64,000 bases of DNA from an uncultured bacterium (GTDB lineage Bacteria; Verrucomicrobiota; Verrucomicrobiia; Limisphaerales; UBA8199). The notes beneath the pieces are model-generated. The model did no database searches, was not told the origin of the DNA, and saw only the letters and a list, made by a program, of their open reading frames with translations. The position numbers were made by a program, and so were the translations under genes. Of the stretch, positions 54,701-64,000 are shown one piece after another. The stretch's first letter is position 1. Each line of letters starts with the position of its first letter. Location: positions 384,001 through 448,000 of the forward strand of contig CAVVMW010000021.1 in NCBI GenBank assembly GCA_963749495.1, given 5' to 3'.

Positions 54701-55834
54701 TCACGCCGCCTGGCGCTGGGCGGGGCGGGCGGGGATGCCGGCCAGGCGGGCCAGTTCGCGGTGGAGGCGGGCGACACGTTCGACCTGGCCCTTGGCGGCA
54801 AACCGCTCGTAAAAGCCCTCGTTGCGGAAGTCGCGCACGTGCTCGGTCCATGGGGAGAGCCGCTGACGCCAGCGGTCGAGGCGGCCCTCTTCGGGGGCGG
54901 CGTCCTGGGCGGCGAGATCGGCGCAGACGCGGATCATGGCCTTGAGGGTGACCGGTTTGGTGACCATGTGGCTGTCATTGCCCCAGGCCTCCTCGAAGAC
55001 CTGCGAGGCGGCCTTGAGAAAATCGCCGACGCAGTCGTAATAGCGGGCCGCCGCCCGTTTGTCGGCGCCTTCGGGCTCGATTTGCTGCCAGTCCTGTTTG
55101 ACCCAGCGATGGATTTCGTTGAACAACTCCGCCTGGAGGATCCACTTGTCCTGTTTGCTGCGGCCACCCAGGCGGTTGATGCGATACCGCAGCGGGCTGT
55201 CCCCCTGGCTGTAGAGCATCTGGACGACCCGCGCCGCGAACCGGCGGTCCGGCTCCGCCCAGGACACCCGCTCGTAGAGGTCCACCAGGTGGCTCTTGTT
55301 GATGCGCGTGGGCGTCGAGTTGATGATGACGAACATCTCCGCGGCAAAATCCTCGCTCCGCCCGTCGAAGATGACGCACGGCACATAGATCGACTTGGCC
55401 TCGTCCGGGTGCGTCCGCTCGTAGAACTGCAGCGCGGCCAGCCGGTGCTGCCCGTCTATGATCAGGAATTTCTCCGCCGGGTCCGGGAGGTTGCCCACCG
55501 TCTGGTTTCCCGCCAGCAACTCGAATTGGAGCTTCTCCGGCGTGAACAGCAGCACCGTGCCCGGTATCGGCGGCTGGCTCACGGCCGTCTCGTAGAAGTT
55601 GCGGATGGCGCGCACCTTCGAGCGCGAGAGCAACCGCTGGAAGGCCTTCTCGCTCCGCTCGACCCGCCCAATGAATTGCGCCACGTCGTCCTCCGCCGCC
55701 GCCTCTTCGGGCTTGATCTCCTCGCCCTCGTCGTAAAAACGGCTGATGAACCGCACCCGGCCCAGCAGGTCCTCCGACGGATAAGCCACGAAATAAAACA
55801 CCGCGTCCTTCTGCCGTATCTGCGTTGCGATCAT
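54701..55834 (-). CDS. DGQHR-domain protein (DndB-like, ParB/Srx superfamily)
   Basis: FQR, IIDGQHR and F..IN motifs. Confidence 0.88.
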   Translation of the reverse strand: MIATQIRQKDAVFYFVAYPSEDLLGRVRFISRFYDEGEEIKPEEAAAEDDVAQFIGRVERSEKAFQRLLSRSKVRAIRNFYETAVSQPPIPGTVLLFTPEKLQFELLAGNQTVGNLPDPAEKFLIIDGQHRLAALQFYERTHPDEAKSIYVPCVIFDGRSEDFAAEMFVIINSTPTRINKSHLVDLYERVSWAEPDRRFAARVVQMLYSQGDSPLRYRINRLGGRSKQDKWILQAELFNEIHRWVKQDWQQIEPEGADKRAAARYYDCVGDFLKAASQVFEEAWGNDSHMVTKPVTLKAMIRVCADLAAQDAAPEEGRLDRWRQRLSPWTEHVRDFRNEGFYERFAAKGQVERVARLHRELARLAGIPARPAQRQAA

Positions 55835-55973
55835 TTCTGCGCCTTTCGTTGAAACTGCACCCGGTTCGCCAATGCGCCCGGCCCTCGTAAAACCCGACGC
55901 GTCCGGCCTGGCGCGTTCGCCATCGAGGGCCATCTTAATCCGGCTCCGCCCGGAAGACAAGACCAGGCGAGTC

Positions 55974-56108
55974 GTAGCGCAGGTTTCCAAACCTGCTGTA
56001 TCGCCGATTTCCAATCGGCAGGGCGTCGGCATATCGAGCGCCCCCGATTTGCCGACGGCCTGCGGGTTTGGAAACCCGCGATACGGCAGGTTTGGAAACC
56101 TGCGCTAC
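55974..56108. repeat. GTAG-type REP doublet (GTAGCGCAGGTTTCCAAACCTGC)
   Basis: Inverted arms; related copy at 61801-61937. Confidence 0.8.
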
Positions 56109-56246
56109 GCTGGCGCCCCGGGGCGCACAGGCGCGCCGAGCGACTCTGTCAATGGCCCTGCCCCGTCCCTCGGCGGTCCCCACTTCTTGCTTGCGGCATG
56201 ACAAAACATGGCCGATGGTCCTTCACACTGGATAGGCACACACTTT

Positions 56247-57515
56247 ATGAACGGCCCGGAGCTTTCGGTCCTCTTTTTCATGCAGATGTTCTGCATCCTG
56301 GCGGTCTGCCGCGGGGTGGGGGCGGTGGCGCGCCGGCTGGGCCAGCCGCAGGTGGTGGGGGAGATGGTTGCGGGGGTGTTCCTGGGGCCGTCCTTGCTGG
56401 GGCTGGTGTTGCCCGGACCGCAGCAGCAACTCTTTCCCGGAGAATCTTTGAAGTTCCTCTACATCGGGGCCCAGTTGGGCGTGGGTCTTTATATGTTCCT
56501 GGTGGGGGTGGAATTCAACAGGGAGACCTTTGCGAACCGGGCGCGGAGCGCTTTGACGATCTCGGCAGCCGGGATGGTTGCGCCGTTCCTCCTGGGCGCC
56601 GGGCTGGCGCTGGCTTTCTTCAAGGCCCCGGGCTTGTTTTCGACTCGGGCGACCCCGTTCGAGGCGATGCTCTTTTTGGGGGCGGCGATGTCGATTACGG
56701 CGTTCCCGATGCTCGCGCGGATCATCTATGAGCGCGGGTTGACGGGTTCGCCGCTGGGCACGCTGACTCTGGCAGCGGGAGCGCTTGGGGACGCGGGGGC
56801 GTGGTGCGTGCTGGCGATCGTGCTGGCCAGCTTCGGCGCAGGACCGGCGGTGGCGGTCAGGGCCATCGCGGGCGGGCTGGCTTACGGGGTCGGCGTGCTC
56901 ACCATTGGGCGGAGGCTCCTGGCCCGGCTCGGCGTGGCGGCGGAGCGTGCCGGCAGAATCACTCCCGGCCTGATGGCTCTTACCCTGATGCTCTTCCTGC
57001 TGGGGGCCTGCACCACCGATGCCATCGGCATTCATGCCGTGTTCGGCGGTTTCCTGCTCGGGGTGGCGATGCCGCGGGGGTTCTTCGCGCGCGAAATCCG
57101 GCGCCAACTCGAGCCGTTTGCCGTCGTCTTCCTCCTGCCGATGTTTTTCACTTTCTCCGGGCTCAACACCCGGCTCGACCTGCTGGTGAATCCGCAGATG
57201 TGCTGGATCGCTCTCGCCATCATCGCGGCGGCCTGCCTGGGCAAGGGGGGCGCCTGCTGGGCGGCAGCGCGGCTCGGTGGGGAGGACAACCGGACGGCCC
57301 TGGCGGTCGGCACCCTGATGAACGCGCGGGGCCTCATGGAGTTGATCCTCATCAACATCGGCCTCCAGCGAGGCATCATCCAGCCCGGGCTTTTCTCGAC
57401 CCTGGTCCTCATGGCCATCGTTACAACCCTAATGGCCTCGCCCGTCTTCGAGTGGGTCTATGGGCGCCACGCCCGCAAGAGCGAGGGCCTGAAAGTCATG
57501 CCCGCGGAGGCGTGA
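56247..57515 (+). CDS. Cation:proton antiporter (CPA2)
   Basis: GQPQVVGEM.AG..LGPS, SITAFP.LARI, MNARGLMELI and many TM helices. Confidence 0.9.
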   Translation: MNGPELSVLFFMQMFCILAVCRGVGAVARRLGQPQVVGEMVAGVFLGPSLLGLVLPGPQQQLFPGESLKFLYIGAQLGVGLYMFLVGVEFNRETFANRARSALTISAAGMVAPFLLGAGLALAFFKAPGLFSTRATPFEAMLFLGAAMSITAFPMLARIIYERGLTGSPLGTLTLAAGALGDAGAWCVLAIVLASFGAGPAVAVRAIAGGLAYGVGVLTIGRRLLARLGVAAERAGRITPGLMALTLMLFLLGACTTDAIGIHAVFGGFLLGVAMPRGFFAREIRRQLEPFAVVFLLPMFFTFSGLNTRLDLLVNPQMCWIALAIIAAACLGKGGACWAAARLGGEDNRTALAVGTLMNARGLMELILINIGLQRGIIQPGLFSTLVLMAIVTTLMASPVFEWVYGRHARKSEGLKVMPAEA

Positions 57516-57626: not shown

Positions 57627-57728
57627 AAAAGCGGCAGAGGACTGCCGCACTCCAAAACGCTTCGCGAAGCAGGGATGCGGCCGAGGTCGCGCTAGCGTCT
57701 TGGAGTGCGGCAGTCCTCTGCCGCTTTT
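57627..57728. repeat. Inverted repeat element (AAAAGCGGCAGAGGACTGCCGCACTCCAA)
   Basis: ~29-bp inverted arms between convergent genes. Confidence 0.75.
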
Positions 57729-57880: not shown

Positions 57881-59014
57881 TTACCTGAAGCGGGTTTGCT
57901 CGAAGCGCGCGTAATCCTTCATCATCTGCTCGGTGGCGCTGGGGGGGATGGTTTTCAGCGCGCACTCGATGTCCTCGGGGGTGAGCAGGTTGGAGCCGCC
58001 GCCGATCGCGCGGCGGAAGCCGGCCCGCTTGGCGCTTTGGATAATGGCGACGATGTCCGACCCGGTGTAGCCGTTGAGCCTCGGCGCCAGGGCCGGGGGG
58101 TTCACCGCCGCATCGACCGGGGCGGCGCCGAGCTGCTTCTTGAGCATGAACTCAATCGCCGGCTCATCGGGCAGGCCGACGAAGATCTTCTCGTCGAACC
58201 GGCCGGTGCGGAAGACGGCGTCATCGATGTCCCAGGGTTTATTGGTGGCGCCCAGCAGGAGCAGGACGTTGGGGGACTCGACGAATCCGCCGATCTCGGC
58301 CAGGAACTGGACGACCAGGCGGTTGTCCACCACGGAGTTGCCGCCCCGGCGCGGGAGCAGGCCGTCCACGTCATCCAGGAAGAGGACGCTGACCGCCTGG
58401 GAGCGTGCGGCCAGGATGAGCTTGCGCAGGCGCTGCTCGGATTCCCCATGCCATTTGCTGCGGATCTCGGCGCCGGTCGCGTAAAAAAAGGCCGCGTCCA
58501 ATTCCCCCGCCACCGCCTTGCCCAGGGTGGTTTTGCCGTTGCCCGGCGGGCCAAAAAGGAGCAGGCCGCCGCCGGCGCGGATGCCCCATTCCCTGGCCTT
58601 GTCCGGGTGCCGCATCGGTTCGATGACCATCTCATCCAGCTTGGTCTTGACATCGTCCATGCCAGCGATGTCGTTCAGACGCACGTTGGGCTTGTCGGTG
58701 ACCAGCCAGTCTTCGCTGCCCTCGGCCGCCTCCCCTTTGCCTGCGGGTTGGTCGCTCACCGGTTGGCGGGCCCGGCTGGACGAATCGGCGCCGGCGGCTT
58801 TGGCCTTCTGCTGCAACTCCTCGGCAATCTCGACCAGGTCTCGAGCCTCGGTCACAAAACCGCGCCGGATCCGGCCGTCGGTCTTGTCCGAGAGCTTGAG
58901 GGCGAACTCGGCCGCCTTGGCCATGTGGAAGGCCCCGCCTCGCAAATTGCCCTCCTGCATCGCCGTTTCGGCGGCGGCCGCATGTTCACGCTTTTTATCG
59001 GCATCGAAGCTCAT
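57881..59014 (-). CDS. Vps4/CdvC-like AAA+ ATPase with an N-terminal MIT-like helical domain
   Basis: DKPNVRLNDIAG, GPPGNGKT, SKWHGESE, FLDD, ATNKPW, and a C-terminal helix PSATEQMMKDYARF; AAGGAGG RBS at 59019-59025. Confidence 0.8.
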   Translation of the reverse strand: MSFDADKKREHAAAAETAMQEGNLRGGAFHMAKAAEFALKLSDKTDGRIRRGFVTEARDLVEIAEELQQKAKAAGADSSSRARQPVSDQPAGKGEAAEGSEDWLVTDKPNVRLNDIAGMDDVKTKLDEMVIEPMRHPDKAREWGIRAGGGLLLFGPPGNGKTTLGKAVAGELDAAFFYATGAEIRSKWHGESEQRLRKLILAARSQAVSVLFLDDVDGLLPRRGGNSVVDNRLVVQFLAEIGGFVESPNVLLLLGATNKPWDIDDAVFRTGRFDEKIFVGLPDEPAIEFMLKKQLGAAPVDAAVNPPALAPRLNGYTGSDIVAIIQSAKRAGFRRAIGGGSNLLTPEDIECALKTIPPSATEQMMKDYARFEQTRFR

Positions 59015-59047
59015 TGTTCCTCCTTGGACCTCCTTGGTTCACCCGCA

Positions 59048-59962
59048 TTAGGTCTCCAGCCTCAGCGCAAAGGTCATAATCGAGACATTGTAGGCAAAGG
59101 CCAGGCCCGCCAGCAGGAGGAACAACGCCGCCGAGAACCAGGACGAAAAGCCGACCTCAAGCATCACCAAGGCCATGAGGACATCGACAGCCAGGTAAAT
59201 CCCCAGCGTGAAGGCATTCGAGCGGTTCGACCCCTTGCGCACCATGGTGCGGATGAATGAGATGGTGAGGACCGGGAGCAGCAGGACGATGGCCGCCCAG
59301 ATGAAGAGCCGCCGCGCCCAGGCCATCCGCTGCACCGGCGCCGGCGGGTCCAGCGCCGCTACGGCGGCCGCCGCCGTTGCACCGGGCGCCCCGGGCTTGG
59401 TCTCGTTATTGTAATGGCGCGTGAAGACCGTATCGCCGCTGCCCACCTCGGCCAGAGTCAGGTCGAGGTCGAGCCTGGCGCCGCCCGGATAGGACTCGAA
59501 GCTGTTGATCTTGCCGAAGAGCACCCCCTGCGCCCCGGAGCCGCCGGCCTGACGCTGCGCCTGGCCCGGCTCGGTCGGCCCCTGGACGCGCAGGTGCAGG
59601 GCCTTGCGGAGCCTGTCCCAGAGCCGCTCCTGGCGCACGTCGAAGACGCCGCTCTGCTCCAGCGCCGAGCGCAAGTGGTCGCTGACATAATCGCTCGGGT
59701 CATTGGCCAGGTGCAGCAGGACGACCGACCCGACGGGGGCCTTGGCTTTGCGCAGGTCCTCGACGATGAGCGGGACCATTTCGTTTGCCGTCTGTTTGCG
59801 CAGCATCCCCACCTCGGGCTTCGTGGGGCCGATGTAAAACCAGCCCTGCAACAGCAGATAACCCGCCAGGGCGGCCACGCCCAGGAACACGAGCAATCTG
59901 AACAGCCAGGTTACCGGATGGCGAACGACGCTGACAGGGGTTTCATATAATGTTCTTAACAT
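59048..59962 (-). CDS. Membrane protein: N-terminal TM, soluble alpha/beta domain, three C-terminal TMs
   Basis: Hydrophobic segments; L..SG.F.V.E...GAQGVLFG.I resembles the CsgG/TolB-N/LpoB-type fold. Confidence 0.7.
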   Translation of the reverse strand: MLRTLYETPVSVVRHPVTWLFRLLVFLGVAALAGYLLLQGWFYIGPTKPEVGMLRKQTANEMVPLIVEDLRKAKAPVGSVVLLHLANDPSDYVSDHLRSALEQSGVFDVRQERLWDRLRKALHLRVQGPTEPGQAQRQAGGSGAQGVLFGKINSFESYPGGARLDLDLTLAEVGSGDTVFTRHYNNETKPGAPGATAAAAVAALDPPAPVQRMAWARRLFIWAAIVLLLPVLTISFIRTMVRKGSNRSNAFTLGIYLAVDVLMALVMLEVGFSSWFSAALFLLLAGLAFAYNVSIMTFALRLET

Positions 59963-59980: not shown

Positions 59981-60638
59981 TTAGTGTTCATTGCCGTCGA
60001 TGATGCTCCGGGCCCGCCGCCGCAGGTCGGTGGTGTCCCCGGCCTCGGCCGTCTTTTGGACGGCCCCGCGTTCCCTGGAGGGCGATTCGCTCTCCTGCTG
60101 TGCGCCCACCTCGTCTTCGAGGTCCTTGAACATCTGGTCGATCGACGGGATGGTCTCGGCCATCGAGGTCTGGACCCCGTCCATCTCCTTGCCGTGCATC
60201 TTCTCCCAGAACGCGGTCGGTGTCCACCTGGTCGCCCAGCTTGTCCTCGACCTCGCCCAGCACGTCGGCTACGGAATCCGGATCGATCCTGACCACGGTG
60301 TTGATGGCCCCCAGGGCGCCGGAGAATTCCTGGTCGGTTTTGGCCATCTCCAGCTTGGCGAGCAATTGCTCGAAGACCCAGCGTTTCATCTCCAGCTTGG
60401 ACATCATCAACTCGCTGGCGCGGCAGGTCTGGAGGTTGCGCTGGGCGGCGGCCTTCTGGCCGTCCCGAAGGTAGCTCCGGGCATCGGCCCAGGCCTTGTC
60501 GCGGTCCGTCTTGAGCTTCTTGATGCGGTCCTTCACGGCATCCACCGCGCCCTCCGCCTCGCGAAAAGCCCTCCGCCGTCTGCTCCTGCCTTCGCGCTCG
60601 CGCTCTTGTCGGGATTTGAATAGGTCTTGAACGGCCAT
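59981..60638 (-). CDS. Snf7/ESCRT-III-like protein (218 aa after correcting a +1 frameshift near 60212)
   Basis: Basic N-terminus, helical hairpin with GQKAAAQRNL, LEMAK..QE...AL and IDPDSV.DVL.EVED, acidic tail, terminal helix DLRRRARSII. Confidence 0.7.
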
Positions 60639-60758: not shown

Positions 60759-61361
60759 TCACTCCAGCTCCAATTGCTTGAGCAACTTCAAGTCGTCCTG
60801 CGAAAAATGGCGGGCGGCGCCGCCCTGCGCGGGCATCTCGTGGAGCTCGCCCTCGCTGTTTTCGGAGGCGAACACCGCCGGCTTGTGTTTGATCTTCTGC
60901 AAATCCGTGAGGGCCTCGTTGGCCTCCTCGACGCGGTCCAAGGCCTCCTCCAATTGCACCGCGATGGCATCCAGGTCCTCTCCTTTGACCCCGCGCCCAA
61001 TGGCGTTTTCCAATTCGCCGAGCTTTTCCAGGGCCATGGTGTTGGCCTCGATGCTCGCCAGCAGGAAATCGCCCGGCCCTTCCATCCGGCTCAACTGCCT
61101 CAAGTCCATCTGGATTTCCTTGGCCAGGAGCCTCTGGTTCAAACCGCCGGTCCGGTCGTACTTCGCCTTTTTGTCTCGAATCCGCTTTTCGTGCTGCGTG
61201 ATCTCCTCCCGCAGCCCGTCCAGGCGGTCCTGGTTGCCGGCGCGATTCCGGGCCAAGCTGTCCCTCCAGAGCCTCAACTGCTCCTTCTCCCCGGGCCGCA
61301 GCCCCAGCCCTCGAGCCAGGCGCGAAGCCACCGAACCGATAAAATCGCTAAAATTCTCCAT
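60759..61361 (-). CDS. Coiled-coil protein, probable second ESCRT-III/PspA-superfamily paralog
   Basis: 200 aa; amphipathic N-terminal helix, basic first half and acidic second half, terminal helix SQDDLKLLKQLELE. Confidence 0.6.
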   Translation of the reverse strand: MENFSDFIGSVASRLARGLGLRPGEKEQLRLWRDSLARNRAGNQDRLDGLREEITQHEKRIRDKKAKYDRTGGLNQRLLAKEIQMDLRQLSRMEGPGDFLLASIEANTMALEKLGELENAIGRGVKGEDLDAIAVQLEEALDRVEEANEALTDLQKIKHKPAVFASENSEGELHEMPAQGGAARHFSQDDLKLLKQLELE

Positions 61362-61530
61362 GCATCTGTCCCTTCAATCACATTCAATGCCTTTTGAAAG
61401 ATCAGCCCGTTTGGACCACCGCCGGTGCCGCAGCCGCAACCGCAGCCGCCTTTCCTTACGGCGGAAAGCGGATTCCTATTCAGCGCGGCCGAGGATGGAG
61501 GAACCCCGGGGCCAATGTCGGGAGGCGCCC

Positions 61531-61760: not shown

Positions 61761-61996
61761 GAGGGCGCACCTTAGTACTACCGGACGCAAATACGGTGAC
61801 GTAGCGCAGACCTCCGAGTCTGCTGTATCGCCGACTTCCAAGTCGGCTGCGCGTCCGTGAAGGCACGCGCGTCCGCACCTCGGTTGGCCCGCAGGTTTGG
61901 AAACCTGCGAGACAGCAGACTCGGAGGTCTGCGCTACCCTGGCGGCGGCCCTGCCGCGCATCGAGGATACGTCATCGTATTTATGAAACGGCCCAC

Positions 61997-64000
61997 TTAG
62001 TTCTCCTTAATCCAAACGATGGACCGTCCGCCGCGGTTTAACCTGGCGTAATTGGGAATGGCGGTCAGGGGCTGGCCGTTGGAGAAGGTGCCCTTGATGA
62101 CCATGACGCCGCCCAGCAAGTCCGGGTTCCATTCGGCGCGAAGGGGCGAGCCGGGGCCGAGGGCAAGGTCGAGATTCTGGTCAACGGTTTCGATGTTGTA
62201 GAGGAGAGCGCCATAGCGGAGGGCAACGCGTCCGCGGAGGGCGGCGACCTGGGGGGCGGCCCGGAGGCGCTGGACTTTCATCGGGAACATTACCTCAACT
62301 TTGTCCCCGGCCTTCCATGTGCGCGTGAGGCCGGCGTAGCCGTTCTCGATGGACGGTTTGACCGGGGACCCGTTGACGGAAATGGCCGTGAGGCCCTCGC
62401 AGGCGGGGCTTGCGGTGTAGAGGAGGCTGACATTCCTGCGCGGGACGCGGAGCTTGAGTGTGAACCGCTTTGGCTGGGCGGGGCTGACGCCGAGCTCCAC
62501 CTTGCCGCTCCATGGATAATCCGTGGTTTGGGTCAAGGTCACCGCGGTTCCGCCGATGTCCGCCTTGGCAGTGATTCCCGAGTAAAGATTGACAAAGAGG
62601 GCATCCGCCGTTTTGGAGCAGGTCCAGGACGGCAGCATGAGGAGGGTGCGCGGGATGTTTCCGACGCAGCACGGGCAGCCATGCCACTTGTAACGTTTCT
62701 CGCCGGAATCCAGCGGGTTTGTGTAGGTGAAGTTCTCGGCCTCGAGGTCGAGCGAGCCAAGAATGGCGTTGTAAAGCGTTTCCTCGTAGAGGTCGGCATA
62801 TTGCCCTTGGCCGTAGGTGAGCTGCAGCTTGTATTGGAAGAACAGCTCCCCGCAATCCGCGCACGATTCGGAATAGGCGCGGTTCGGGAGCGAGTAGTCC
62901 TTGCCAAAGCCCTCCGAGGTTTCGCCGCTGCCGATGCCGCCGGTGACGTAGTATTTCCGGTTCACGATGCTGTTCCACAACGACATGACCGCCGAGCGGT
63001 ATTCCGGGTCGCCCGTTTCCATGGCGATGTCCGCCATACCGGAGTAGCAATAGGCCGCGCGGACCGCGTGGCCGACCGCTTCGTACTGGCGGGTCACCGG
63101 CAGATGGCTCTGGTCGTACTCCTCGCCATGGCCGCGCGAGTCGAGGAGAAACCTTGCCAGTTCGATGTATTTCCGGCCCTTGCCCGGGCCGTCGAGCCGC
63201 TCGACGAACCGCCCCAGGCGGACCAGCGCCTGCTCGAGTTCTTCGTGGCCCTCGTACCAGGCCCGCTTGGGCGCCGGGCCGATGTTGGCGCACCAGCAAT
63301 CGGCGAGTTTTCGCGCCGCGTCGAACAGGCGCCGGTCTGCGCCATCGGTGAGCAGGCAATGGGCGATGGCGGCCTCGATGAAATACCCGGCGTTGTATCC
63401 TTCGTGGTCGAATTTGTTGGACCATCGTTTGTTGCCATTGATGGTGTACATCGTCTGGAGATACCCGTCCGGCTCCTGGGCGCCGAGGATGGTGGGTATC
63501 CAGTCCTCGAGGGTCTTTCGCAGGGCGCGCTGGGCATTGGCGATCTCCGGGTCGCCCTGCGGCTCGACCATCAGAGCCAGGCAAGTGGATTCCACCGTGT
63601 TATAGACCCACGCATTGGCGAAGGGGGCGCCGGTGTGCCTGGCGCCGCTCTTTCCCTCGAGTTTGTTGGCGGCCTGCACGAAATTCTCGATGCCCCCTTC
63701 GGGCAGTCTTGGATCCGAGATTTTGGCCGCGCAGTGTGGAATCCAATGAACGATAATGTTTTTGATCCGAGGCCTCCAGAAGGGACTGCCCACGCTGTAG
63801 GGTTCGGGCCAGACCGTCTCCAAGTGGTTGCTGGGGGCCGGCGGTTCAACGGTCACGTTGACGGTGTTGGTGGAGGCGAATTGCCCGTCGTCCGCTTTGA
63901 GCGCGAGCACGTAAACGCCGGGCTCGGAAAAACGCGCCGCGCTTTCGGGCTCGCCTGGACTCTCAAACGCCACGGAGCCGGGCCCGACAGCTTCCCCCAT
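61997..64000 (-). CDS. GH127 beta-L-arabinofuranosidase-like protein with a PKD-like domain (5'-partial)
   Basis: HEGY, GHAVRA, YVTGG.GS, YSESCA and CPCC..N. Confidence 0.88.
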   Translation of the reverse strand: MGEAVGPGSVAFESPGEPESAARFSEPGVYVLALKADDGQFASTNTVNVTVEPPAPSNHLETVWPEPYSVGSPFWRPRIKNIIVHWIPHCAAKISDPRLPEGGIENFVQAANKLEGKSGARHTGAPFANAWVYNTVESTCLALMVEPQGDPEIANAQRALRKTLEDWIPTILGAQEPDGYLQTMYTINGNKRWSNKFDHEGYNAGYFIEAAIAHCLLTDGADRRLFDAARKLADCWCANIGPAPKRAWYEGHEELEQALVRLGRFVERLDGPGKGRKYIELARFLLDSRGHGEEYDQSHLPVTRQYEAVGHAVRAAYCYSGMADIAMETGDPEYRSAVMSLWNSIVNRKYYVTGGIGSGETSEGFGKDYSLPNRAYSESCADCGELFFQYKLQLTYGQGQYADLYEETLYNAILGSLDLEAENFTYTNPLDSGEKRYKWHGCPCCVGNIPRTLLMLPSWTCSKTADALFVNLYSGITAKADIGGTAVTLTQTTDYPWSGKVELGVSPAQPKRFTLKLRVPRRNVSLLYTASPACEGLTAISVNGSPVKPSIENGYAGLTRTWKAGDKVEVMFPMKVQRLRAAPQVAALRGRVALRYGALLYNIETVDQNLDLALGPGSPLRAEWNPDLLGGVMVIKGTFSNGQPLTAIPNYARLNRGGRSIVWIKEN

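Follow-up and report, generated by a model that had tools for sequence, protein, structure and literature searches.

The window analysed here, a stretch of 64,000 nucleotides from an uncultured bacterium, contains a gene that an open reading frame (ORF) list presents as a 245-residue ORF overlapping one of 72 residues. Read as one, the two would encode a Snf7-like protein, and a AAA ATPase is encoded close by. The locus raises two questions: whether the split belongs to the organism or to its assembly, and whether this bacterium pairs a protein of the ESCRT-III type with an ATPase that recognizes its C-terminal tail.

Reviews restrict ESCRT-III/Vps4 pairs to archaea and eukaryotes, and one of them, from 2025, notes in the part available to us that bacteria appear to lack a Vps4-like ATPase (PMC7619361). 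Within the ESCRT-III superfamily, the branch known from bacteria is PspA/Vipp1 (IM30) (PMC7619361). According to the accessible text of Ravi et al., 2024, VPS4-like AAA+ ATPases were transferred from archaea to bacteria with snf7 replaced by a TPR plus 6TM protein, and some bacterial members of the PspA/Snf7 clade associate with AAA+ ATPases, for which ATP-dependent membrane remodelling was proposed (PMC11237479).

Results

One extra base splits the gene

We examined the gene by translation of the minus strand and by comparison with its relatives. Frame 1 begins with an ATG at 60638 and gives 143 residues that end in ...DTDRV, with the V codon at 60210–60212, and frame 2 runs from WEKMHGKEMDG... 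to ...IIDGNEH before a stop at 59981–59983. The parts of the gene are as follows.

60210..60638, minus strand: first part of the Snf7-like gene (residues 1–143, frame 1), with a conserved N-terminal motif, a basic N-terminal region and the Snf7-type core; supported by translation, Pfam Snf7 and the match to the relative P0077.
60209..60211, minus strand: the single extra base that shifts the frame; supported by a one-column gap in both orthologs (alignment A1) and by the P0077 junction at residue 143/144.
59981..60208, minus strand: second part of the Snf7-like gene (residues 144–218, frame 2, stop at 59981–59983), with a conserved stretch, a variable acidic linker and the C-terminal tail; supported by translation, the P0077 match and alignment with 30 homologs (A4).
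59984..60037, minus strand: a C-terminal tail of 'type B' made up of the last 18 residues, on which the ATPase N-domain may dock.

Two same-genus orthologs each have 218 codons in one frame, and when their DNA was aligned with the window (A1), the window had exactly one base more. The nearest intact relative, P0077 (218 aa), aligned gap-free with residues 1–143 at 86.0% identity and, again gap-free, with residues 144–217 (74 aa) at 83.8% identity. This comparison places the extra base at plus-strand position 60209 or at either A at 60210–60211; a scan of codon scores located the frame switch at ~60205. The joined product (143 + 75 = 218 residues) has the modal length of the family. Frame 1 itself stays open past the shift, to 59988, as an Arg/Gly-rich wrong-frame tail. 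Among 71 loci of relatives (including two pairs of duplicate contigs, L002/L006 and L008/L037), 65 hold a complete Snf7-like gene, five are cut at contig ends and one (L014) has a fragment only, and the gene lies in a single frame in every complete copy (65/65). A preliminary description of the same DNA had proposed that one base near 60212 splits the gene in the ORF track and that its removal yields a product of 218 residues; the ortholog alignment and P0077 confirm both the split and the product, and move the site by 1–3 bases. The gene and its one-base split are genuine features of the deposited sequence.

The extra base is probably an assembly error

The assembly comprises 31 contigs, the longest of 1.25 Mb, has a G+C content of 63% and looks like a long-read metagenome bin. 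We scanned the whole genome for frame switches by codon log-odds, with the scores of the Snf7-like site itself as the strict threshold, and found 87 switches as strong as this one (183–315 at looser thresholds). Twenty of the other 86 strong sites were sampled at random and Pfam was run on both halves of each. Twelve of the 20 were clearly one gene spread over two frames (both halves matched one family over complementary stretches of its profile, or matched successive domains of a single enzyme), and the genes split in this way include a GlnRS-type synthetase, ThrRS, triosephosphate isomerase (TIM), UvrD and a Mu-type portal; the remaining eight were two probable splits, one apparent true gene junction and five sites without Pfam information. 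The sole tpiA (TIM) gene and the sole thrS gene of the assembly are each split over two frames, and such breaks in essential single-copy genes point to consensus indel errors. At the Snf7-like gene itself, the two halves are about equally conserved with respect to P0077 and do not decay after the shift, and three partner genes (encoding the coiled-coil protein CC1, a membrane protein and the ATPase; see below) are intact. Together, these results indicate that the one-base insertion is probably an error of the assembly consensus (a consensus indel) and not biology. The living organism most likely makes an intact 218-residue Snf7-family (ESCRT-III-like) protein, with the insertion introduced as a consensus error of long-read metagenome assembly.

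Alternatively, the frameshift could be real, in which case the gene was either recently inactivated or encodes a 216-residue protein with the wrong-frame, Arg/Gly-rich C-terminus in place of the tail, its partners remaining intact. The extra base does lie outside any long homopolymer, and no public read or contig spans 60205–60220: three public metagenome runs contained 5–6% of the sampled words each, no RNA run was listed, and the four contigs from those runs reached only 59000–59107, 60284–60502 and 61358–61500. A real lesion would also be in keeping with a module that is dispensable in the lineage, as the gene is carried by 3 of 41 related genomes (its own and two of three same-genus genomes), and with a gene order in the window that is rearranged relative to other loci, which suggests a locus with a history of change. 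We nevertheless regard a real frameshift as unlikely, because identity to P0077 is maintained past the shift, frame 2 contains no stop, the sole tpiA and thrS genes are broken in the same way and most of the sampled switches are splits of ordinary genes. In favour of a programmed +1 ribosomal frameshift that regulates synthesis of the full-length protein, both frames are open across the site. Against it, the gene is single-frame in each of the 65 loci of relatives with a complete copy, the extra base is missing from both same-genus orthologs and frame 0 offers neither a stop nor any other stalling signal there; as such a shift occurs in none of the homologs, this mechanism can in practice be dismissed. 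A chimera of two lineages was rejected, since both halves have P0077 as their nearest relative.

The joined protein as a member of the Snf7 family

Pfam Snf7 (PF03357) matches the window at the border of its cut-off of 27.3 bits, scoring 26.4 bits with the first part alone (E 6.1e-6 over residues 32–133) and 28.0 bits with the frame-1 ORF. Support from the family as a whole is broader: of 109 full-length representatives, 70 match Snf7 at E ≤ 0.01 and 19 at the cut-off, and many homologs carry a precomputed PF03357 annotation. By contrast, PspA_IM30 (PF04012) matched none of the 109 representatives at E ≤ 0.01, nor did it match the window. When the family profile (A2) was searched against PDB sequences, it matched the core of yeast Snf7 (chains 5fd7/5fd9; E 4.6e-5; positions 24–138 against 12–133) as well as 9jsd and 8wb6, and the sole other match was one chance-level row. 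Net charge is +7 over residues 1–60, −4 over residues 61–143 and −6 over residues 144–197. These data bear out the preliminary description, which had called the protein Snf7-like and had named a basic N-terminus and an acidic C-terminus as features of ESCRT-III proteins, and we are confident that the protein belongs to the Snf7 family. Sequence searches show a small, discrete family: 398 proteins came up at E ≤ 0.001 in a word-indexed search, and a full profile search of 1.84 billion representative proteins returned 193 clusters at E ≤ 0.001, 65 of them at E ≤ 1e-30.

The Snf7-like gene recurs in a four-gene module

We found that the same set of genes recurs across the loci of relatives: a membrane protein, CC1, the Snf7-like protein and an AAA ATPase of 370–400 residues. 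In the window, the partners of the Snf7-like gene are the following.

60759..61361, minus strand: CC1, a coiled-coil protein of 200 aa encoded upstream, whose C-terminal helix is itself conserved; its gene neighbours the Snf7-like gene in many loci, and the protein was aligned (A5) and modelled.
59048..59962, minus strand: membrane protein (304 aa), hydrophobic at either end and with a middle domain weakly similar to LpoB/CsgG; conserved in the module.
57881..59014, minus strand: single-cassette AAA ATPase (377 aa); Pfam AAA at 115.7 bits plus AAA_lid_3, with its motifs in alignment A6.
58790..59014, minus strand: MIT-like three-helix N-domain of the ATPase (about residues 1–75), from the model, Foldseek and VIA.

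The hydrophobic segments of the membrane protein were judged by eye from the translation; its middle domain matched Pfam LpoB at E 0.0042, under the cut-off, and a protein Atlas search provided leads only. The Snf7-like stop codon overlaps the ATPase start by 4 nt in 60 of the 61 loci with both genes. The window is unusual in that the membrane-protein gene sits between the two.

Module loci are labelled Verrucomicrobiota, Planctomycetota/Phycisphaerae and Anaerolineales, and the sources of homologs add Hydrogenedentes and Thermodesulfobacteriota. Across these phyla the Snf7-like core retains 60–80% identity, which, together with the presence of the gene in so few related genomes, suggests horizontal spread under strong constraint. 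Palindromic repeats that flank the region were considered as the boundary of a mobile element and set aside, since the repeat occurs in at least 224 copies of at least 100 nt genome-wide and its presence is uninformative. In the defence-system library PADLOC, the ATPase found only weak matches of the IetA/TRIP13-type AAA kind, and the other three proteins found none. A caspase-domain gene adjoins the module in many related loci.

CC1 is modelled with helices at residues 2–16, 23–70, 73–123 and 128–158, a disordered segment at 159–181 and a last helix at 188–199. In outline, the first helix is short, the next two make a long hairpin, and after the fourth a disordered linker leads to the terminal one, a layout that resembles closed ESCRT-III; the terminal helix of CC1 is conserved equally in modules with either of the two tail types described below (A5). 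Several searches failed to link CC1 to ESCRT-III, and its reading as a second ESCRT-III protein was set aside. Profile-profile comparison with the Snf7-like family gave a probability of 0.4%, and the CC1 profile matched only coiled coils in the PDB. Foldseek gave no hit better than E 0.001 and placed CdvB2/CdvB at ranks 6, 19, 43 and 44 (E 0.12–0.4), and a wide VIA search was headed by generic four-helix bundles (Z 9–11.4), with IST1 at ranks 27 and 33 (Z 8.8 and 8.5). The Snf7-bearing cluster of the Atlas reached only 0.86.

An ATPase built like Vps4 and CdvC

The ATPase has one AAA cassette, in which the P-loop (G-P-x-G-x-G-K-T) and the other catalytic positions are invariant across 18 sequences (A6). 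Among NCBIfam models it scored highest with CDC48 (195.1 bits, on the D2 part), followed closely by CdvC (178.6 bits, over nearly the whole AAA part), PAN (155.1) and FtsH (145.1); the CdvC score falls short of the equivalog cut-off (NF041006, 650 bits), and all AAA family models stayed far below their cut-offs.

At the N-terminus, a model of residues 1–100 (pLDDT 83.7) has helices at 3–20, 24–43 and 47–83. Its Foldseek top list is dominated by MIT domains (Vps4/SKD1, Sulfolobus CdvC, NRBF2, katanin, MITD1 and ULK3; E 0.016–0.8, TM up to 0.85), and VIA superposed it on MIT domains with an rmsd of 1.6–2.0 Å over 71–82 residues at Z 10.2–12.5, below the Z of ~13 asked for helical bundles, under which two bundles may merely share a common arrangement. 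Pfam MIT matched none of five N-domains at E ≤ 1. We therefore describe the N-domain as MIT-like by predicted fold only.

At the C-terminus, the last 98 residues of the window ATPase did not match Vps4_C (PF09336) at E ≤ 1, and relatives near its clade likewise gave no match or 14–15 bits. A Vps4_C-type last helix is, however, found in other ATPases of the module: seven of eight in the major clade reach the Pfam cut-off of 21.3 bits (21.4–30.4; the eighth, L012, scores 17.5), and 10 of 18 full-length ATPases match at E ≤ 1. The matches in the major clade span only profile positions 27–57 of 61; the first 26 positions, which are unmatched in these ATPases, we take to be the beta-domain part. 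The ATPase is thus built like Vps4/CdvC and bears some marks of Vps4, but cannot be filed as a member of either family.

The C-terminal tail and its pairing with the ATPase N-domain

The tail is a conserved terminal segment behind the variable acidic linker and exists in two forms. Type A is the majority form and recurs, diverged, across the wider family; type B was found in the window and in 15 of the 120 homologs listed. The preliminary description had read LRRRARSI in the window tail as a degenerate MIM1, the ESCRT-III motif that binds as a helix to the H2/H3 groove of MIT domains in the account of Wenzel et al., 2022, as far as the text was available (PMC9477494). Scored against six positions of the consensus (D/E)xxLxxRLxxL(K/R), the window tail reached 2/6 in its best register, as 70% of the 6233 long-ORF C-termini of the genome do, and the type A tail reached 3/6, a level attained by 19% of random C-termini. 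Relative to these random C-termini, the degenerate MIM1 is unsupported as a motif match. Loosening the residue classes raised the match to 5/6, which 1.8% of random C-termini reach, with classes that were loosened after the tails had been seen.

We then compared tails with the N-domains of their ATPases. Tail type agreed with N-domain type in all 31 non-redundant pairs, the window included. The type-specific positions are 59, 62, 66, 69 and 70 in the tail and 25, 28, 31, 38, 50, 55, 56, 58 and 68 in the N-domain, and several of them are size swaps in opposite directions. In three loci, the ATPase body is close to that of the window, yet the N-domain and the tail are both of type A; in the window, the types match although a gene separates the two coding regions. 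Type B forms a single clade on the ATPase tree, so the covariation reflects a single evolutionary event, or perhaps two, given the L040 lineage, and because tail and N-domain lie on contiguous DNA in nearly all loci, the two could co-travel by recombination alone. An enrichment of the type-specific N-domain positions on helices 2 and 3 was discarded, since the 9 of 11 bundle positions located there are approximately what the helix lengths would give.

A prediction of the complex, which the preliminary description had suggested, was run with N-domain residues 1–80 and the last 40 residues of the tail, using our own 31-row alignments. Three runs scored 0.51, 0.53 and 0.53 (median 0.53), compared with 0.00–0.01 for three controls; the runs agreed in at least 95% of contacts with a partner pLDDT of at least 58, and no contacts were returned. 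Of 157 solved complexes, 116 reach the mark applied to these scores, as do 2 of 215 mismatched pairs. Within the range that passes the mark at ≤0.60 lie 18 of the 157 solved complexes and both of the mismatches that passed, and a pass in this range errs more often than not when the pairing was not already likely. In addition, MIT-MIM complexes have already been solved, so the pass may reflect likeness rather than binding. The suggested prediction separated the pair from its best control (0.53 against 0.01) and is graded as weak support.

From the covariation and the predicted complex, we judge that the tail probably binds the ATPase N-domain. It is plausible that the Snf7-like protein is the substrate of the ATPase through such tail-MIT binding, and we propose that the tail is MIM-like in the functional sense of a docking element, not as a match to the MIM1 consensus.

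It is possible, though we think it distinctly less probable, that the conserved tail is no handle for the ATPase and instead keeps the Snf7-like core autoinhibited, binds the membrane or contacts the membrane protein or CC1; on that reading, the ATPase N-domain might recognize another target, such as the CC1 tail or the caspase-like neighbor, a suggestion we hold equally tentatively. The chance-level likeness to strict MIM1, a covariation of one or two events on contiguous DNA and the weak support from complex prediction would all accommodate a tail of this kind, as would the conserved terminal helix of CC1, which is unchanged between type A and type B modules, and the caspase-domain gene beside the module in many loci. 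Against it, the prediction sets the tail on the N-domain in agreeing runs and with scores that the three controls do not approach, and the tail keeps to the type of the N-domain even when the ATPase body departs from it. Moreover, ESCRT-III proteins recruit MIT domains with this same arrangement, in which the tail hangs from a variable acidic linker, according to the available part of Wenzel et al., 2022 (PMC9477494).

Discussion

The reading that we find best overall, and consider probably correct, combines an intact Snf7-like protein, a split that is an artefact and an ATPase docked on the tail. In such a machine, the Snf7-like protein would polymerise on the cytoplasmic membrane, where the membrane protein might nucleate it. 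The tail at the C-terminus of the Snf7-like protein, carried on the variable acidic linker, would dock on the MIT-like domain of the ATPase, which would then extract subunits from the polymer, as Vps4/CdvC do with ESCRT-III.

The closest counterparts are archaeal CdvB/CdvC and the Asgard and eukaryotic ESCRT-III (Snf7/CHMP4 class) with Vps4. The present module shares with them a Snf7-family protein of ~200 residues that has a basic region at its N-terminus, is acidic in its C-terminal half and ends in a conserved segment. Likeness to individual members of these systems extends to yeast Snf7, which the family profile matches, to CdvC, the second-best NCBIfam model for the window ATPase, and to Vps4, through the Vps4_C-type last helix of many ATPase relatives. 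Several features differ. The host of the module is bacterial, the ATPase scores slightly higher on the Cdc48 D2 domain than on CdvC and lacks both a Pfam MIT match and a match to the first 26 Vps4_C positions, and the Snf7-like tail misses the MIM1 consensus. No CdvA or ESCRT-I/II partners were seen in the module, which has the membrane protein and CC1 instead. The type 1–7 MIT-MIM modes, in which an element of the ESCRT-III tail is recognized by a three-helix MIT bundle, offer the nearest precedent for the proposed docking (Wenzel et al., 2022, in the part available; PMC9477494); the module resembles them in its terminal tail element and three-helix MIT-like bundle, but departs from the strict MIM1 pattern.

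Among bacterial proteins, PspA and Vipp1 are likewise helical, membrane-associated and of the same superfamily, but the representatives of the present family match Snf7 and not PspA_IM30, and no PspA/Vipp1 chain appeared in the PDB profile search. To our knowledge, PspA has no partnership with a Vps4-like ATPase. The other contexts described in the accessible text of Ravi et al., 2024 involve two-domain ATPases or ABC transporters, unlike the present module (PMC11237479). In the literature as available to us, we found no description of the four-gene module, the two tail types or the matching MIT-like types, although members may be listed in the supplements or web application of that paper (PMC11237479).

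A more ambitious reading, which we advance only tentatively, would make the module a genuine bacterial ESCRT-III/Vps4-type machine, homologous to those of archaea and eukaryotes and spread horizontally among Verrucomicrobiota, Planctomycetota and other phyla. The ATPase would be recruited by co-evolving pairs of type A or type B tails and MIT-like domains, possibly with the invariant CC1 tail as a second recruiter, and coupling to a caspase-like protease in many loci would suggest a role in membrane repair or in cell suicide and defence.

For the annotation of this assembly, a split gene should be suspected first of being a consensus error. For the family, if the preferred reading is true, a conserved operon in bacteria that couples a Snf7-type protein to a MIT-like AAA ATPase qualifies the picture of such pairs as limited to the archaea and the eukaryotes, and the Vps4_C-type last helix in many of the module ATPases strengthens that qualification. 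The module would then offer a compact bacterial system for how tails recruit a disassembly motor, with its two natural pairs of tail and N-domain types as a ready-made specificity-swap test.

Gene order and flanking genes

In the window, the membrane-protein gene (59048-59962) lies between the Snf7-like and ATPase genes, unlike in the related loci, where it was found either upstream or downstream of the Snf7-like/ATPase set and where those two genes share a 4-nt overlap (60/61 related loci). The following genes flank the module or lie beside it:

54704-56032, minus strand: 443-aa ORF scoring 37.3 bits for a DndB-type domain (associated with DNA-sulfur modification), beside the locus
56208-57512, plus strand: Na+/H+ exchanger gene, flanking the module
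62000-64000, minus strand: GH127 beta-L-arabinofuranosidase gene, flanking the module

A palindromic element of ~137 nt, with 42-nt arms that are 90-93% complementary, is present in two copies (55973-56109 and 61800-61937) that enclose the exchanger gene and the module. Because at least 224 copies of at least 100 nt are distributed over 19 contigs of the genome, this element is a dispersed REP/MITE-like repeat and does not mark a boundary of the module locus. Near-perfect inverted repeats with 35-nt arms, 91-97% complementary (57525-57559/57820-57854 and 57627-57728), sit in the 365-nt spacer that separates the exchanger gene from the ATPase gene's 3' end; these may be terminators or belong to another repeat family.

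Caspase-domain and DUF4384 neighbors in related loci

Many related loci encode a large caspase-domain protein next to the module, in most cases on the module's own strand. Single-linkage clustering of flanking ORFs placed such a gene near the module in 27/71 loci and direct BLAST in 16/71, many loci being too short to tell by either count. Against Pfam Peptidase_C14, the protein of locus L005 scored 67.3 bits. In the window's own genome, the sole caspase-domain match falls on contig C21 (~578,263-578,920), at a distance of about 130 kb from the window. Also recurrent is a protein of 679 aa whose DUF4384 domain scored 40 bits, found 5' of the module in 12 loci.

Neighboring genes in related loci
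L005:7920-11591, minus strand: caspase-domain protein (Peptidase_C14)
L023:4577-6493, L024:5893-7779, L026:5936-7852, L027:5932-7776 and L030:5786-7495, plus strand: caspase-domain proteins
L039, L042, L049, L063 and L072: caspase-domain proteins, upstream of the Snf7-like gene
L006:2120-4156, plus strand: DUF4384-domain protein, 679 aa (example; 11 further loci)

Split and partial genes

Genes split over two frames also occur outside the window in the same assembly, among them the triosephosphate isomerase gene and thrS, each the sole copy in the assembly, and a gene for a GlnRS-type synthetase:

C4:228722-229457: triosephosphate isomerase
C15:428537-430310: thrS
C4:246441-247999: GlnRS-type synthetase

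A genome-wide scan returned 87 strong frame switches, and split genes of this assembly are best taken as probable consensus errors. The window's 72-aa frame-2 ORF is itself listed as a separate protein (P0248) in the public protein collection. The collection also contains two similar C-terminal-only pieces, of 72 and 62 aa, from other assemblies (protein set P0248, P0216, P0252); truncated or split calls of the Snf7-like gene therefore occur elsewhere too. On a 488-kb contig of a Planctomycetia MAG, only a 78-aa fragment related to Snf7-like residues 57-122 was found (L014:6052-6288, plus strand). The module partner genes were not detected there, so the fragment is possibly a remnant.

The terminal helix of CC1

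The coiled-coil protein CC1 (60759-61361, minus strand) ends in a conserved helix of its own, with the consensus G-L-S-x-x-T-x-x-R-L-K-Q-L-E (alignment A5). Modules of both types, A and B, have the same helix, whereas the Snf7-like tail differs between the types. The CC1 terminal helix could be a second, type-independent recruitment element.
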